Shown here piece by piece: positions 1,046 through 8,625 of a DNA stretch of 8,625 nucleotides (its first letter is position 1; the number at the start of each line of letters is the position of its first letter). The stretch is from a virus. Taxonomy: Duplodnaviria > Heunggongvirae > Uroviricota > Caudoviricetes. The position numbers and the translations under genes are program-made. The notes under the pieces are model-generated. The model saw nothing but the letters and a program-made list of their open reading frames with translations. It was not told the DNA's origin and made no database searches. The stretch is from IMG/VR virus record IMGVR_UViG_2778261676_000003, positions 1-8,625 of that record; one strand, 5' to 3'.

Positions 1046-1260
1046 CACTTCACCTCCTGCTGCGGTGCTGCTGGCATTTCACGCCAGTGCGTAACTGAGT
1101 GCGGATCCGGATATTCGGTGCCATCATCCCAGCGATTGCCATTCCACATTGCAGACCACATCTCACCGTCTTCATACATGACCATTACCGGAATTAACTT
1201 ATCGCGCCAGAAGCGCAGCAGGCTATCAGATTTGCAGAGCGTGAAGGAGTTCCTCTGCAC
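1045..1260 (-). CDS. Hypothetical small Trp-rich, mildly acidic protein (up to 71 aa; start uncertain)
   Basis: ORF ends with TGA at 1045-1047, overlapping the start of the downstream membrane-protein gene. The track start at 1260 is a GTG with a poor ribosome-binding site. Internal ATGs (codons 26 and 28) would give a 44-46 aa product. Confidence 0.45.
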   Translation of the reverse strand: MQRNSFTLCKSDSLLRFWRDKLIPVMVMYEDGEMWSAMWNGNRWDDGTEYPDPHSVTHWREMPAAPQQEVK

Positions 1261-1299
1261 ACCACAGACCTGTTACAACCAACTTCCCGCGTCGGAAAA

Positions 1300-2463
1300 A
1301 TGGCGCAGACTACAGCAGAAAATATCCCTCTGGCTGGCACAAGCGGAATGAGAGCAACGCAACAGGAAGCGAGAAGCCAGTTGGTGCAGAGATTTGCTGA
1401 TAAATTTGGTGAGTATGATCCAGCGGTTGTTATTGACAGCCTTAAAGCGAAAACATCAGGAATTCGTCGTGCCGCCGGTAATCGACTGGAGCAGGTTCAG
1501 AATGCTATGGCTGGAGTAAACATTCAGCCTGTGCGAGCAATTCAGCAGATTGATACTGAGATATCTAACCTGCAGAAGCTTGGTAAGGTCGCTGATAACG
1601 AGACGATTTCAAAACTTCAATCCTATCGTGATGAGCTTGTTCGCAATGCTGGTCCTGATGGTCCGGTAAATCTGGATTTGAAGCAATTAAGCGATCTGCG
1701 CAGCCAGTTCAGAATGGATGTGAAGGGTGAGCGACCAGTGTTACCAAACCGTTCCGATGCTGCCATTCAGCGCGTTTACAAGGCAATGACTGACGATATC
1801 AATGGTGCCATTGGTCAGAATCTTGGCAACGATACTCTCCGTAAATATCAGCAGGCCAATGCCGTCTACGCTGACGAAGCGGCGAAACTAAAGAATACCA
1901 GGCTGAAGAATGTTCTCATGAAAGGCGACCTGACGCCGGAAGTTGTCAACAACATGCTATTCAGCAAGAACAAATCGGAAATTAAGACTCTGTATAACTC
2001 AGTTGGTCGTGTTGGCAGGGCGCAAATGCGCAATGGCATCATTGGAAAGGCAATGGAGAAATCTGGCGGATCCCCTGACCAGTTCCTTCGACAGCTTAAC
2101 ATCCTGCAAAACCAGACTGGCATCACATTTAAAGGTCAGGATGCTGCTTATCTGAAAGGATTAAAAAACTACCTGCAATCCACGCAGCAGGCTGCAAAAG
2201 CGGCAGTAACAACACCCACAGGGCAGCAAACTATTCCGTTCATTATAGGGTATGGGACGGCAATGAACCCGGCGACAACTGGCGCAGCAGTAAGCTACGG
2301 ACTTCTTACTCGCGCCTATGAGAGCGAGCCATTCAGAAATGCAATGCTCCGAATGGCAAACACCCCACGCGGATCAACAGCGTTTGAGAAAGCCATGCAG
2401 CAGGCACAAAAGGCCATTAACGCCCTGACTCAGGGGGCTAAGTCTGATGCGTTGTCAGAATAG
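1300..2463 (+). CDS. Hypothetical phage protein, 387 aa, Q/A/N-rich with predicted coiled regions; possibly a DNA-injection (ejection) protein-like remnant by synteny
   Basis: Long ORF with ATG at 1300 and TAG at 2461-2463, and a weak ribosome-binding site (GGA). It sits immediately upstream of mnt and the tailspike, the position gene 16 occupies in P22-like phages, and its composition resembles ejection proteins. The functional call is by position and composition only. Confidence 0.7.
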   Translation: MAQTTAENIPLAGTSGMRATQQEARSQLVQRFADKFGEYDPAVVIDSLKAKTSGIRRAAGNRLEQVQNAMAGVNIQPVRAIQQIDTEISNLQKLGKVADNETISKLQSYRDELVRNAGPDGPVNLDLKQLSDLRSQFRMDVKGERPVLPNRSDAAIQRVYKAMTDDINGAIGQNLGNDTLRKYQQANAVYADEAAKLKNTRLKNVLMKGDLTPEVVNNMLFSKNKSEIKTLYNSVGRVGRAQMRNGIIGKAMEKSGGSPDQFLRQLNILQNQTGITFKGQDAAYLKGLKNYLQSTQQAAKAAVTTPTGQQTIPFIIGYGTAMNPATTGAAVSYGLLTRAYESEPFRNAMLRMANTPRGSTAFEKAMQQAQKAINALTQGAKSDALSE

Positions 2464-2552
2464 CTTCGCAAACACCAGGAACGTGCAAAAACCAAATATG
2501 TAGAACGCAATATTCAGCATATCTCTTTGCATATATCCTCCGTAACTGATAG

Positions 2553-2846
2553 TTAGCTGCTGTCTTTTTTATATAGCTCTTTGAGCGTATCAAAGACAAT
2601 TTTCTTAACCATATCAGATTGTTGTTCTGCCATACGCTCTGCATCGTCAATGTAAACTGATGCAGAGTTTTGTTTATCCAATGATTCCTCAATCGCTGCA
2701 ATTATCTCTGAGTTCAGCGACCTGTTATTCATCTTCGCACGCTGCTTAATTTTCGCGTGGAGTTCATGCGGAAGTCTCAAGTGAAACTGCGCCTCGTCGT
2801 ATTTGCTGTACATCCTTGATGCCTCACCAGTTGGGTGGAATGGCAT
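2553..2846 (-). CDS. mnt: Mnt-like ribbon-helix-helix (Arc/MetJ superfamily) transcriptional repressor
   Basis: Translation contains QFHLRLPHELHAKIKQRAKMNNRSLNSEIIAAIEESL (RHH motif) and the C-terminus DAERMAEQQSDMVKKIVFDTLKELYKKDSS, closely resembling the P22 Mnt C-terminus (...DAERLADEQSELVKKMVFDTLKDLYKK..) as I recall it. AGGT ribosome-binding site 4 nt before the ATG at 2844-2846. An alternative ATG at 2811-2813 would give 86 aa. Confidence 0.85.
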   Translation of the reverse strand: MPFHPTGEASRMYSKYDEAQFHLRLPHELHAKIKQRAKMNNRSLNSEIIAAIEESLDKQNSASVYIDDAERMAEQQSDMVKKIVFDTLKELYKKDSS

Positions 2847-2934
2847 CGTAACCTACTGGATAAATACTCAATAGTACCATTTCTGTATGCAATCACATCA
2901 TGGTTGCATCATATCATTCGTCTGGAGCAATGAA
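2847..2934. promoter_or_regulatory. Divergent intergenic region between mnt and the tailspike gene; contains an inverted repeat ATGCAA-N11-TTGCAT (2887-2909) as a candidate operator
   Basis: 88-bp AT-rich spacer between divergently oriented start codons, with 6-bp inverted-repeat arms. Promoter hexamers are not confidently assignable by eye. Confidence 0.35.
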
Positions 2935-5091
2935 ATGTCAGATATCACCGCAAATGTTGTGGTAAGCATGCCTTCGCAACTCTTCACTATGGCTCGTTCT
3001 TTTAAAGCCGTAGCCAATGGCAAAATTTATATCGGTAAAATTGACACTGACCCGGTAAATCCTGAAAACCAGATTCAGGTTTATGTGGAGAACGAAGACG
3101 GCTCTCACGTTCCTGTTTCGCAACCAATCATCATTAACGCTGCTGGTTACCCGGTATATAACGGACAGATTGCCAAGTTCGTAACTGTGCAAGGCCATTC
3201 TATGGCTGTTTATGATGCATACGGTGTGCAGCAGTTCTATTTTCCTAATGTGCTGAAGTATGACCCGGATCAGTTTTCTGCAGAATGGCTTGCCAAGATG
3301 TCTGCGCCTGATTCTTATGCATTATTTGGTACATTCTCATCAATAGCAGATCTACGAGCATTTACTGCATACTCATCAGTTAAGGAAAATGGAAGAGTCT
3401 ATGTTGATTCTTATCACCTTGGAACTGGTTATGGCGGAGGATATTTCCGCTGGAATTCAACCAGCACTGATACTGATGACGGAGGCTATACCATTAACCC
3501 AACTGGCAATACTGGAACAGGACGCTGGAAACGTGAATTCGTATCTGCATATTCAGCTCGCACAGTTTCGCCTTTAGAGTTCGGTGCTAAGATGAATGAC
3601 AGCACCTTCGATAGTGCCCCAGCGATCAATGCCGCCATTTCATACCTCAATCCTTACTTTGATGCCTCATATGACTCACATCAAGGCGGGGATGTAACCA
3701 TGCCTGCCGGGATGTTTTACATCAATGACACAATATACGGTTCTCCAAATGTAAGATTGATCGGTACTGGGGGAACGACCGGATTTAGATATTCACGTGC
3801 TGGGTGCTGCATCATCATATCCATGTCAACAATGGATGCAAACAAGGTACAATATGACACTGCTCCTTATAAAATCGACGGTACTGGTAGATATACTGAC
3901 ACCTCAACAGTGGATAATGGGCTGACAATAAGCCACGGCTATTACGGACAGTATTTAGAAAACTTGGTTTTTTTGGGAAATCCAGATCAAAAAGCCAACA
4001 TTCGTATCTGGCGAGTGCCAACGTCAAAGTTAATTGGTGTGGGAACATATGGCTGTCTAACCAACTTCTGGATTAGCGGTTCTTGGGGTACGGCAGTTGA
4101 AAATTGCTTTGCTCAAGGAGCAAAATACGCAACATTTTTGACTCCTCACACCACAGCACTAAACATTGTAGGTGGGTACTTCACTGGAAACACATCGCAA
4201 ACATGGGCAATGGGTTCTGCTCAGTGGTTCCACAGGACTGCCTCTGATTCAAATCGTCCAAATATTGCTTATGTAACAACATTCCTTTATGCGCATGATT
4301 CAGTTGATATCAATATGCATGGAGTTACTTGGGAGGGTTACTATAGGGATTTTGCTTTATTCTACTGCGGTAATGTTAACGTTTTTGGTGGCTATAACGA
4401 AAACTCTGTAATCCCTAGCTCCGAGTATGGTCACACAGTCTGGGTGCACTGTGTAGCCTCTAGGATTAATGCTTATGGAGTATTTCTAAATCATGGGTAT
4501 AAGGATTTCGCCGTTCAGTCAGGAAATTTAATTGACCCATCTACCGGGGCGTTAATCCCTTCTGAAATATCTAACATAAATCTTTATGACCCAAGAGTGG
4601 ACTCGAAGTTTTTACAGATAAACAAAGATCTTGGATACGGCGAATATAGTATATTCATTAGCTGCAAGCATCCTATAACATCAGATCTTGCTGTCACACT
4701 TGCCTCATTAAGAAACTACTCGGCCCAATTTGATGGCCTGCTTGATCAATACACTATGCGGGTTCCCTCAATAACTCCAAATGGAACAACAAGCTTTAGC
4801 TTCCAAATCAGTAATATATCTAGTAATGGTGAGTATAACGTGCGCTTTTTAGCCAGAAACTCTGGCGGCACTTTACATCAGGATATTAGATTTAAAATGC
4901 TAATTGGAAGCGTGGTGTCAGTGACAGGGGTGGAAGAGCGTTCGAAAGTAGGTACTGCAAGCTTGGGCTCACCTTCGGTTAGCTTTGCTTCTGGCACGGT
5001 AACGATAACCTTTAATGGGAATTCAGGACTATATTCTTTATACCGTGTGCAATGCTTGCCTGTTAACAATCAAGTTATTTACAGTTTCTGA
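2935..5091 (+). CDS. Phage tailspike protein: P22-type N-terminal head-binding domain fused to a divergent beta-helix-like receptor-binding/depolymerase domain (718 aa)
   Basis: N-terminus [59 protein letters not shown]...[11 protein letters not shown] closely parallels the P22 gp9 head-binding domain ([43 protein letters not shown]...). GGAG ribosome-binding site 7 nt upstream of the ATG at 2935; the track's upstream start at 2887 adds 16 residues not seen in homologs. Downstream [23 protein letters not shown] resembles the entry motif of pectate-lyase-like beta-helix depolymerases. Stop TGA at 5089-5091. Confidence 0.9.
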
Positions 5092-5097
5092 ATTTAT

Positions 5098-5128
5098 CCC
5101 CCCCCCGTACCCGCGGTGGGGGGGGGGG
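5098..5128. repeat. Homopolymeric inverted repeat C9-GTACCCGCGGT-G11 between convergent stop codons
   Basis: Read directly from the sequence: C-run 5098-5106, G-run 5118-5128, with a central CCGCGG palindrome. It starts 6 nt after the tailspike stop and ends 3 nt before the acetyltransferase stop (TGATCA at 5129-5134). Confidence 0.8.
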
Positions 5129-5131
5129 TGA

Positions 5132-7024
5132 TCACAAAAGAGGGTTTTTATGATTTTTCAAGTAAATCTTAGCCAATTCTCTTGCGCCATAAACATTTAG
5201 ATGTGCATGATCCATGTAAATAAACCTTCCATTTAAATAAACCTTGCAGCCTGAATCCGTGCAAAGGATATCATTTGGGTCTATATAAACTGGTTCTTTG
5301 TAGGAATTCATGATTTCATCTAATGAAATGTTAACATTTACTTTTTTAGCAAGTTCACTGTGGTCATCATTTCCAGATGCAATGTCAGATTTAAACTTGT
5401 TGAATTCCTTATAATCCATACCATTTGGTCTAAGTATTACAATTAGTTTAGCACCATGTGATGATAGGTATTCAAGAGTGGATAAGATGTCGTAACCATC
5501 TGCCTTGAAGTAACTGTCATCATTACCCCAACTAGCCCCTACAATCACGTTTTTATAACCCCTAGCCAAATCAATCCTTTTTTTGTTATAGGATAGCTTT
5601 TCCTCGCTACGGTATTTTGAAACCTTTGTGCCCTCTCTATATGGATTTATATTCATAATTGGTGGGAGCGAGCTTGAAACAGTAACAGCGACTGATTTTC
5701 CTGCATCCTTAGCCAAATAATCAATGAACTCTATGTATGACCCTGCTATCGAATCACCGATCATTATGGTCTCTGGCTTTTTTGTTACATCTCCTATGAT
5801 GCATAAACCATCTTTAGTTAGTGAATAGCTATCATAGCACTGAGAGTATTTGACCTCAGACCTGTTCTCATTTGCAAAATCGTTATTGTTAAATCTATCT
5901 GGGAATCCTTTCTCTGAGGAAGCCCAGAGGAAAATAAGTGAGAAAATTACAAGAGGAAGAATTAATAGAAGCAAGAGCGAAGGCAAGAATCCCATCTTAA
6001 ACTTGCGCACCTTAGTTTCAAAAGCATAAAAGTTGAATATAGAGAGAGCGATTGTTAGTATCAATACCACAAATTTAACAAAAATAGTGAACTCAACACC
6101 CCTATAATTAAGTAGGGCAATTATAGGCCAATGCCACAAATACATTGAATAAGAGATTTTGCCAATGAATATAACTGGTTTTAAACTTAAAACTCTGTTA
6201 ACAATTGGTGTAAAGGATTGATTGGCTCCAGCGATTATTATTAATGCCGCACCCACGCAAGGTATCAAAGCATTATAGCCAGGGAACAAGCTTTCTTTCT
6301 CTATTGAGAAAGAGCTAAATGCAATTAATGTTATACCTAAAATAGAGAAGGCGTTTGATACTTTTGTGGATTCAAATTTGTAATTACTTAGTAATATTGA
6401 AATAACGCCACCAATCATCAACTCAAAAGCCCTGAATGGGAGCATGTAGTATGCAAGCGATGTATATATAAGTGCGCCGTATTGCGAAACAGCAAACAAA
6501 GCAATTATTATCAAAACAAAGATCTGAAGCTCATACTTTCTAAATTTCAATATCACAAATGAAATTATCAAAGGTGCAATTAGATAGTACTGTTCCTCGA
6601 CGGATAAAGACCACGTGTGAAGAAGAGGGATCTGATCGGCGTTCCCTGAGAAATAGCTTGTAGTGTTGAAGTAAAAAAGGAAATTACTGATAGAAAGAAG
6701 AGTGAATATTGCGCTTTTGATCATGTATATAAACTCATCAGGCATCAATATGAAAATTGATGCGACTAATGTTGTAAATAACACGACCAATAAAGATGGC
6801 AAAATTCTCTTGATTCTTCTGTTGTAAAACCCTGAGTATGTGAAACTTCCGTTAGAAATTTCCTTTCTTATTATGGAGGTTATTAGATACCCAGAGATTA
6901 CAAAGAAAATATCTACCCCGATAAATCCGCCCGTAATGAACTGGCTACCAACATGATAGACTATTACCAATAGAACGGCTACTGCACGCAAGCCGTCAAT
7001 GTCTGGTCTATATCTAATCTCCAT
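5132..7024 (-). CDS. Integral-membrane O-acetyltransferase, acyltransferase-3 family with a C-terminal SGNH domain (OafA/Oac-like; likely O-antigen acetylation / serotype conversion), 630 aa
   Basis: N-terminal motif RPDIDGLRAVAVLLVIVYH and multiple hydrophobic segments typical of the acyltransferase-3 fold. C-terminal GDS (IGDSIA) and DHAH blocks typical of SGNH esterase-like domains. ATG at 7022-7024 with a GGGA ribosome-binding site. The gene looks AT-rich by eye. Confidence 0.9.
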   Translation of the reverse strand: MEIRYRPDIDGLRAVAVLLVIVYHVGSQFITGGFIGVDIFFVISGYLITSIIRKEISNGSFTYSGFYNRRIKRILPSLLVVLFTTLVASIFILMPDEFIYMIKSAIFTLLSISNFLFYFNTTSYFSGNADQIPLLHTWSLSVEEQYYLIAPLIISFVILKFRKYELQIFVLIIIALFAVSQYGALIYTSLAYYMLPFRAFELMIGGVISILLSNYKFESTKVSNAFSILGITLIAFSSFSIEKESLFPGYNALIPCVGAALIIIAGANQSFTPIVNRVLSLKPVIFIGKISYSMYLWHWPIIALLNYRGVEFTIFVKFVVLILTIALSIFNFYAFETKVRKFKMGFLPSLLLLLILPLVIFSLIFLWASSEKGFPDRFNNNDFANENRSEVKYSQCYDSYSLTKDGLCIIGDVTKKPETIMIGDSIAGSYIEFIDYLAKDAGKSVAVTVSSSLPPIMNINPYREGTKVSKYRSEEKLSYNKKRIDLARGYKNVIVGASWGNDDSYFKADGYDILSTLEYLSSHGAKLIVILRPNGMDYKEFNKFKSDIASGNDDHSELAKKVNVNISLDEIMNSYKEPVYIDPNDILCTDSGCKVYLNGRFIYMDHAHLNVYGARELAKIYLKNHKNPLL

Positions 7025-7223
7025 AAGGAATCCCTTTTGCTTACCCGTTTAAAATTAATATTTCAGACGCAAAGAAGTATCTTCTTCACATGATGTTGAT
7101 TGCAAACAGTGATCAAGCCATTTCATTACGCAATTCGTCGCTCTTATGCAGTTACAGTCATCATTTTCTACCTACAAAACTAGCGAAGTTGCCAAGTGCC
7201 TGACCTGTGTGAAACGCATATAT

Positions 7224-7251
7224 GCAAACAGCAAACAGCAAACAGCAAACA
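7224..7251. repeat. Tandem heptanucleotide repeat (GCAAACA)x4
   Basis: Four perfect head-to-tail copies read directly (7224-7230, 7231-7237, 7238-7244, 7245-7251), followed by a degenerate CAGCACAG. It lies in the 443-bp intergenic region about 200 bp upstream of the acetyltransferase start and about 215 bp downstream of the integrase stop. Confidence 0.8.
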
Positions 7252-7467
7252 CAGCACAGTGTAATAATGTGTTAACTATGCCAATCGAGGTGTACTTTGC
7301 AAATAGCTTTAACATTTCTTCTATCAGCTAATAATCAAAGGCATGAAGTCTATCATCCAAATCTTAAACGATCGATACTTGCTGTGGTTGATAAGACAAA
7401 ACTGAGACAAACAAAGCTTTGCGCTGGATTGCAAGGCTTTGTGCTCTTCGATAGTGGTTAAGGTGGA

Positions 7468-8625
7468 TCACTCCACCTTTTCATCAATCCAGTCCGCCCA
7501 CCATTGCATCATTTCTCTGCGTTTATCGAGATACTGAGCATGGTTGTAAATCCCACGCACAGAACCGCCGTTGGCATGTGCCAGTTGCACTTCAATAGCA
7601 TCAGCAGGCCATTCGTGCTCGTTCATAATCGTGCTGAATTCATGCCTGAATCCGTGACCGCTTTCCAGACCCTCATAGCCGATTTGTTTGATCACAAGTA
7701 GCACCGCGTTCTCGCAGATTGGCTTTTTCTTATCGTTGCGCCCGGCAAAAACAAACTCTGATACTGGTTTAGTGATGGAGCTTAGCGTAGTGAGAAGTTC
7801 AACCACCTGGTCCGACATCGGGACCACATGAATTTTGCGTCCCTTCATCACACTGGCGTCGATGGTGATAATCCTGTTTTCAAAATCGACGTTCTTCCAT
7901 TGCATGGAACGAAGCTCTTTTGTTCTTAGGGCTGTGTAGCGTAAAACCTTGGTCGCAATGAGCGATACGATGCTTCCTGAAAATGTTGCCAGTGCTTTGT
8001 TAAATGCCGGGATCTGGTCTGCAGGAAGAAACGGGAAGTTTTTCTTGCGGTATCCCTTCATGGCGTCAGCAAGGTCAGGTGCCGGGTTATATTTAGCCCT
8101 ACCAGTGACAATGGCGTAACGGAAAACCTCGCCGCATCTTCTGCGGGCTTTGTTGGCTCGCTCCATTGCACCGCGATCTTCAAATCTGCGGATTACTTCC
8201 AGCAGTTGCATCGGCTCAATATCCTGAATCTCAAGACCGCCGATGATAGGTAAAATGTCGTCATCAAACATTTTTGCAAGTTCATTTGCATAGCCTACTG
8301 ACCAGACTTGCTTCTTGTGCTCGTACCATTCCTTGTAAATCGCACTAAAGGAATTGTTGTTAGACGAAGCCTTTTTCGCCTTTACCGGATCGATGCCGAC
8401 CGAGATGTCTTTCCTCGCAGTCCATGCTTTATCCCTTGCCTCCTGCAAAGTCATAAGCGGATATTTTCCGACGGTCAGTATTTTTTCCTTACCGTCAATC
8501 TTGTAGCGAAGCTGCCATACCTTTTTCCCGGATACAGGAACATAAAGGTACAGGCCATTACCATCGAGAAGGCGGTATGGTTTTTCTTTCGGCTTTGCTG
8601 CTTCAATCTGCTTAACGGTGAGCAT
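7468..8625 (-). CDS. intS: Tyrosine site-specific integrase with an N-terminal arm-binding (DUF4102-type) domain, P4/CP4-57/IntS family (385 aa)
   Basis: N-terminus MLTVKQIEAAKPKEKPYRLLDGNGLYLYVPVSGKKVWQLRYKIDGKEK is the characteristic arm-binding domain of P4-type integrases. C-terminal catalytic-domain residues include ...HGFRHEFST... and ...LAHANGGSVRGIYNH.... The sequence matches my recollection of E. coli K-12 IntS, so the symbol should be confirmed by BLAST. The start codon is the last three bases of the window. Confidence 0.92.
   Translation of the reverse strand: MLTVKQIEAAKPKEKPYRLLDGNGLYLYVPVSGKKVWQLRYKIDGKEKILTVGKYPLMTLQEARDKAWTARKDISVGIDPVKAKKASSNNNSFSAIYKEWYEHKKQVWSVGYANELAKMFDDDILPIIGGLEIQDIEPMQLLEVIRRFEDRGAMERANKARRRCGEVFRYAIVTGRAKYNPAPDLADAMKGYRKKNFPFLPADQIPAFNKALATFSGSIVSLIATKVLRYTALRTKELRSMQWKNVDFENRIITIDASVMKGRKIHVVPMSDQVVELLTTLSSITKPVSEFVFAGRNDKKKPICENAVLLVIKQIGYEGLESGHGFRHEFSTIMNEHEWPADAIEVQLAHANGGSVRGIYNHAQYLDKRREMMQWWADWIDEKVE

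Follow-up and report, generated by a model that had tools for sequence, protein, structure and literature searches.

What is an inverted repeat made of two homopolymeric tracts doing between the stop codons of two convergent prophage genes? In the window, by which is meant the whole 8,625-nt stretch of DNA analysed here, a C9 arm (5098–5106) and a G11 arm (5118–5128) flank the spacer GTACCCGCGGT (5107–5117), which carries CCGCGG at 5111–5116. Read from the window sequence, this repeat at 5098–5128 is exactly what a preliminary description had claimed. The ends of the spacer pair as an inner 4-bp stem with a 3-nt loop, and the complete predicted RNA hairpin (5094–5131, plus strand) has a stem of ~17 bp that includes A–U and G–U closing pairs. 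The hairpin occupies almost all of the 40-nt intergenic gap (5092–5131), with each tract located 3′ of both stops, namely the tailspike TGA (5089–5091, plus strand) and the acetylase stop (5132–5134, minus strand). The convergent arrangement, the length of the gap and the position of the tracts outside both reading frames were thus described correctly. Predicted folding energies are −33.2 kcal/mol for the plus-strand RNA and −27.5 kcal/mol for the minus-strand RNA.

The C9/G11 pair is the highest-ranked inverted repeat within the window, where no further G or C run of at least 6 nt occurs. Under an independent-base model, the chance expectation is 0.017 G or C runs of at least 9 nt per window, and about 5e-7 per window for an inverted pair within 30 nt.

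The sequences that follow the stem are UGAUCACAAAAG on the plus strand and AUAAAUUCAG on the minus strand. Neither contains a U-tract, as had been noticed at the outset, and E. coli RNA polymerase would therefore not be expected to terminate efficiently here by the intrinsic route; a terminator scan of the window makes no call here, and an Rfam search of the window matched no family. Other structural readings were dropped, including G-quadruplex and triplex (there is only a single G run and no third tract) and BoxC/PIT (the hairpin is single copy). The only ORF that runs across the hairpin (38 aa; 5015–5131, plus strand, ending in FIPPPYPRWGGG before its stop) is out of frame with the tailspike gene and was judged spurious; its stop end would move with tract length.

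Flanking genes and prophage context

The hairpin stands at the 3′ end of both neighboring genes, for which Pfam and PHROGs bore out the identities first proposed. On the plus strand, the tailspike gene (2935–5091) encodes 718 aa from ATG 2935 and carries a P22 Head_binding domain, which stops near 3275 and gives way to a novel receptor-binding part. The mechanically called tailspike ORF comprises 734 aa from 2887, 16 codons upstream of the Head_binding domain; ATG 2935 is probably the true start, and a public collection holds the 718-aa product from there. On the minus strand lies an AT3-SGNH O-antigen acetylase gene (5132–7024) with Acyl_transf_3 and SGNH domains, whose product is named as an E. 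coli protein in the source records. It is a lysogenic-conversion "moron" gene, presumably expressed in the lysogen. GC content is 35.7% in the acetylase gene, 42.4% in the tailspike receptor-binding part and 42–49% in the acetylase's neighbors. Outside Enterobacterales, the best matches to the acetylase in species-representative genomes are mostly from Flavobacteriia (33–37% identity). Only distant relatives of this kind were found, at no more than 37% in species-representative genomes and 30% in viral contigs, and they are uninformative for the junction.

The window covers the end of an E. coli prophage resembling Sf6, IME10 and HK620 (Lederbergvirus). Its other genes, as assigned with Pfam and PHROGs, encode a Mnt repressor, a partial gp16-type DNA-ejection protein and an IntS-type integrase, and known phages match positions 1200–3275 and 7458–8625 at about 96% identity. 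Positions 1–1200 hold early-left prophage genes on the minus strand, namely an hkaC/xis-like gene (1–201), a gene-19-like gene (310–510) and a DUF4752 gene (767–1048), and a fusion at ~1060–1200 joins these to an internal part of the DNA-ejection gene (gp16). The fusion identifies the prophage as an internally deleted remnant of ~8.6 kb. Since its late region is lost, at most the acetylase side of the hairpin is relevant in that strain. In other carriers of the cassette described below, gp16 is full length (665 aa). The window itself is 100% identical to contig 26 of Logan SRR5185384.

Two further features of the region deserve mention. A 12-nt inverted repeat (7411–7442; ACAAAGCTTTGC / GCAAGGCTTTGT, 92% complementary) lies directly 3′ of the integrase gene, close to the right-hand boundary of the cassette, and is a candidate for the int terminator. 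In four of the E. coli loci compared (L004, L007, L010 and L011, at ~8180–8690 of those loci), an HNH endonuclease gene (PF13392) sits between tailspike and mnt; it is missing from the window.

Relatives of the hairpin at the same position

The hairpin is part of a cassette (3276–7457) that also comprises the tailspike receptor-binding part, the acetylase gene and its upstream region. Searches of phage records and of 5,426 complete E. coli genomes, sensitive mode included, turned up nothing that matches 3276–7457, and the same held for the junction when it was compared by megablast and blastn with phage records and complete E. coli genomes. Diverged versions of the cassette, at 70–82% protein identity, occur in Yersinia kristensenii (L013), in Enterobacter ludwigii (L019) and at the locus L017. 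Between alignable flanks, these relatives carry a short hairpin of the form CCCC(C)GC...GCGGGG(G), with a T-run in two. At the position of the window's element, Y. kristensenii has AACCCCCGCAGGCGCGGGGGTTTT, which resolves into AA-CCCCCGC-AGGC-GCGGGGG-TTTT, while L017 has CCCCCGCAGGCGCGGGG, followed by TTTTAATTT on the acetylase strand. The E. ludwigii hairpin, CCCCGCGCACAGCGCGGGG, resolves into CCCCGCGC-ACA-GCGCGGGG and has no U-tract. A much closer relative (L104, 98%) carries C6-GCACCCGCGGGT-G9, which is intermediate between the short hairpins and C9/G11.

The same slot is also filled in known phages. Sf6 has a canonical bidirectional terminator there (AAAAGGGGCCATATGGCCCCTTTT, gene 14/oac; annotated as a terminator), and vB_EcoP-683R2 has another (AAAAAACCACCTCATAATGAGATGGTTTTTT). 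In a 49% relative (P0006), the convergent genes overlap and there is no intergenic hairpin. Phages vB_EcoP-611R6 and CUS-3 were set aside as comparators, since the genes that follow their tailspike genes are co-directional. As for the proteins that accompany the hairpins, the cassette of L017 is fused to a different tailspike N-terminal domain (PF18668), and the Yersinia and Enterobacter versions keep only the final 240–330 nt of the tailspike gene.

None of the five diverged versions, and none of the E. coli alleles, has lost the stem. RNAalifold found a conserved core stem with essentially no covariation; the core is invariant among the relatives and hence uninformative on structural selection. 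Judged by sequence comparison, the window's element is an orthologue of a bidirectional terminator-type hairpin, in which the arms appear to have lengthened and the A/T tracts to have been lost. Among the options raised in the preliminary description, a bidirectional stabilizer or terminator-like structure fits the orthologous hairpins of the relatives and the Sf6 and vB_EcoP-683R2 terminators.

Length variation among E. coli carriers

The E. coli comparison set consisted of ten loci with an identical acetylase and one further locus reached via the tailspike. An alignment of homologous loci had been suggested beforehand, and it places the element at the junction in all 11. The carriers of the cassette are all draft assemblies, and exact lengths from short-read drafts are unreliable; read with that caution, 11 loci display 10 alleles of the element, 31–35 nt in length. 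The tracts range from C9 to C11 and from G8 to G12, with edge substitutions in addition. Nine alleles can be written as C9/G11, C9/G8A, C10/G10, C9/G10A, C10/G8, C3TC6/G12, C11/G9A, C10/G9 and C10/G9A, and the tenth has a T-to-G change that joins the spacer to the G run. With L004 left out, the tailspike-side flank has 1 segregating site in 1796 nt and the acetylase-side flank has 3 in 1907 nt. Different tract lengths occur between identical flanks in L005 versus L008, and in L007/L011 versus L010. The two loci that share C10/G8, L007 and L011, show no difference over 5.9 kb and could come from one isolate. Slippage makes long homopolymer runs hypermutable, and the slipped-strand hotspot that had been predicted is borne out by these differences in tract length between otherwise identical loci.

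Substitutions cluster at the tract edges, with T to C at 5097, T to G at 5117 (the spacer change, in one locus) and the last G to A at 5128; the C3TC6 allele has a C to T substitution within the C run. The last-G-to-A variant, present in four loci, lies on four different backgrounds, and this recurrence could reflect recurrent mutation, recombination or systematic error. Earlier work has shown that substitution rates are elevated beside G runs, and the edge-clustered substitutions agree with this (PMC4928981).

The folds of all the natural alleles range from −24.7 to −33.5 kcal/mol. Because at least 8 G:C pairs remain in the stem of every allele, changes in tract length are probably near-neutral.

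A probable shared 3′ end and its alternatives

The account that we favor, and regard as reasonably probable, is that the element is a shared terminator-type 3′-end hairpin with slippage-expanded arms that still acts on both mRNA 3′ ends. It builds on what is observed at the locus, that is, on the position and fold of the element, its orthology to short hairpins, the C6/G9 intermediate and a hypervariability that is confined to the element.

Under the favored account, the hairpin would be the common 3′ end of two transcription units that converge in a P22/Sf6-like prophage: a plus-strand unit, with the tailspike gene as the presumptive final gene of the late operon, and a minus-strand unit, consisting of the O-antigen acetylase moron. 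The ancestor would have been an ordinary hairpin composed of an A-tract, a CCCC(C)GC stem and a T-tract. Replication slippage in the E. coli lineage would then have extended the C and G arms, with arms beyond about 8 nt becoming hypermutable homopolymers and the flanking A/T tracts being lost. Position and ancestry suggest that such a very stable 3′ stem-loop on both mRNAs would block 3′-to-5′ exonucleases, and that the hairpin would also pause RNA polymerase or terminate leakily. Head-on collisions between polymerases could conceivably assist during transcription of both genes. Where convergent genes rely on polymerase collision for termination, a stem-loop has been reported to be required for positioning (10.1101/2022.10.23.513370), and REP hairpins have been found to serve both as partial terminators and as mRNA stabilizers (10.64898/2026.03.23.713779). 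Work with BTP1 lysogens has also shown that an acetyltransferase operon beside the tailspike gene is highly expressed (PMC7067206).

It is also conceivable, though we consider it unlikely, that the hairpin is a decayed terminator that no longer has a function. The homopolymers would then be a by-product of runaway slippage in a relaxed spacer, and transcripts would end elsewhere, via Rho or not at all. The U-tracts of the relatives are indeed gone here, and the Enterobacter version likewise has none; each arm varies on its own, and nothing points to equal lengths being maintained; and the window's prophage is defective. However, five diverged versions have kept the stem, as has every E. coli allele (with 8 or more G:C pairs), and no C-rich, G-poor rut-like stretch lies directly downstream on either strand, where nothing convincing was found. 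Moreover, very stable stems at mRNA 3′ ends impede exonucleases, and a stem of −27 to −33 kcal/mol at such an end would be expected to do so whether it is selected or not.

A third possibility, which we regard as improbable, is a tunable 3′ switch. Reversible, heritable changes in arm length would alter hairpin strength, acetylase mRNA stability or read-through antisense to the tailspike gene, and members of a population would come to differ in O-antigen acetylation or in superinfection immunity. In its favor, allele diversity is extreme at the element alone, and a neighboring locus type in CUS-3 (neuO) is phase variable through repeats. In BTP1, antisense RNA against the tailspike and injection genes gives immunity (PMC7067206). 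On the other hand, the tracts lie 3′ of both stops, where no on/off frameshift is possible, and the alleles are similarly stable (−24.7 to −33.5 kcal/mol), with little functional difference predicted between them. The antisense immunity of BTP1 (PMC7067206) also suggests a narrower version, in which the arms might serve as a hypermutable 3′-UTR "rheostat" that would tune acetylase mRNA stability or antisense-tailspike read-through via slippage; this we hold to be very doubtful.

Continuity across the element and sequence quality

The preliminary description had also considered a recombination or module-exchange joint between the tailspike and acetylase genes. The tailspike receptor-binding part has 42.4% GC and the acetylase gene 35.7%, a step that does suggest different ultimate origins. 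Nonetheless, homology to the relatives is continuous over the element at 68.5–82% DNA identity, with a single BLAST alignment running through it in L017 (window 3427–6931, 82%), in Y. kristensenii (window 4856–7089, 79%) and in E. ludwigii (window 4764–7076, 68.5%). Among the E. coli prophages compared, which differ in head-binding domains, integrases and integration sites, mosaic breakpoints lie instead near 3275 and at about 7407–7475, and never at the hairpin. Since the alignments are uninterrupted across the element, the idea of a joint is rejected as having scarcely any probability. The cassette is ~99% identical across E. coli prophages with different head-binding domains and neighbors; it is inherited, and moves between these prophages, as one unit. 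It occurs at three chromosomal sites (mlaA-yfdC-int, dacD-sbmC and bioA-ybhB). At the latter two, no integrase gene was called between the chromosomal flank and the acetylase gene.

An artefact of sequencing or assembly, whether of the element or of its length variation, is an equally remote explanation overall. Inverted repeats and GGC are known to trigger sequence-specific errors on the Illumina platform (PMC3141275), assemblies break at orthologous hairpins (L014, L016 and L105), and the cassette is found in no complete, long-read-grade genome. Against this, the element occurs with identical flanks in 12 of 12 sequences (NCBI and Logan assemblies), the separately produced L007 and L011 assemblies both read C10/G8 (though they perhaps represent one isolate), and the 98% relative has the C6/G9 intermediate. 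As an explanation of the element itself, an artefact is effectively excluded. The suspicion of an assembly artefact voiced in the preliminary description thus falls away for the element, which is present in all 11 other assemblies, but stands for the exact lengths, which are uncertain in short-read drafts. That technical error accounts for part of the length variation is a distinct possibility, if somewhat short of an even one. The breaks in related assemblies fall exactly at the orthologous GC hairpins, with an N run in L014 (5904–5946) and contig ends after ...CCCC(C) in L016 and L105, and such hairpins are evidently hard to sequence through.

Implications

The element exists, varies between loci and has an unusual form, yet its explanation is ordinary. 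It would provide a natural example of terminator-hairpin decay, in which the arms slip into hypermutable homopolymers and the U-tracts vanish. In practical terms, short-read assemblies break or are mis-sized at such hairpins, as the orthologous ones show, and this one can serve as a marker of the rare tailspike-plus-acetylase cassette. Should arm length prove to affect mRNA stability or antisense read-through, the hairpin would represent an unusual 3′-UTR contingency element beside a surface-antigen modification gene. A rheostat of that kind, if it exists, would generate heritable heterogeneity in O-antigen acetylation or phage immunity while leaving coding sequence and promoter untouched.

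Comparison with known systems

Terminators are among the closest known systems. The element has the stable GC-rich stem-loop of an intrinsic terminator and lacks the U-rich tract 3′ of the stem. As in bidirectional terminators (Sf6 gene 14/oac; Ju et al. 2019; Wang et al. 2022), one GC-rich hairpin fills a short gap between convergent stops, here of 40 nt (5092–5131), and as with the Sf6 terminator, the slot lies between a tailspike gene and an O-antigen modification gene in a Lederbergvirus-type prophage. The A-tract 5′ and T-tract 3′ of such terminators are present in Sf6 and vB_EcoP-683R2, partly present in Yersinia and L017, and absent from the window; the diverged orthologues of the hairpin still resemble terminators of this type. 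Unlike bidirectional terminators, the window's hairpin is thus without an A- or U-tract, and its stem is about twice as long, homopolymeric and length polymorphic.

REP-type palindromes offer a second parallel, in that they too are GC-rich stem-loops without a U-tract, at mRNA 3′ ends and between convergent genes. Like them, the hairpin would plausibly block exonucleases and attenuate read-through. In contrast to REP, it is single copy and cassette specific and has no REP consensus. The pattern C6-GTACCCGCGG-N-G8 had no match in species-representative genomes, IMG/VR or JGI metagenomes and was found only in this cassette, so the hairpin does not have the multicopy character of dispersed repeats (REP, BoxC/PIT or MITE).

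A third comparison is with homopolymeric contingency loci, in which long G or C runs vary in length between near-identical strains. The slippable, length-polymorphic homopolymer of such loci is present here, as read from short-read assemblies, and like the neuO switch of CUS-3 (a heptanucleotide repeat), it adjoins a prophage gene for a surface-polysaccharide acetylase. The tract of a contingency locus, however, is located within a reading frame or within promoter spacing. Unlike these loci and neuO, the tracts of the hairpin are downstream of both stops, so the reading frame cannot switch.

Finally, the lambdoid prophage moron architecture (Juhala/Hendrix) consists of a gene with its own promoter and terminator. 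Much like a moron, the AT-rich accessory acetylase gene is inserted between tailspike and int, and a hairpin stands at its 3′ end. Unlike in morons, the terminator has no U-tract and is common to both genes, and the receptor-binding part of the tailspike also belongs to the cassette. Considering all of these systems, the hairpin is not a new kind of element but a hairpin of the known terminator type, novel in its runaway homopolymer arms.
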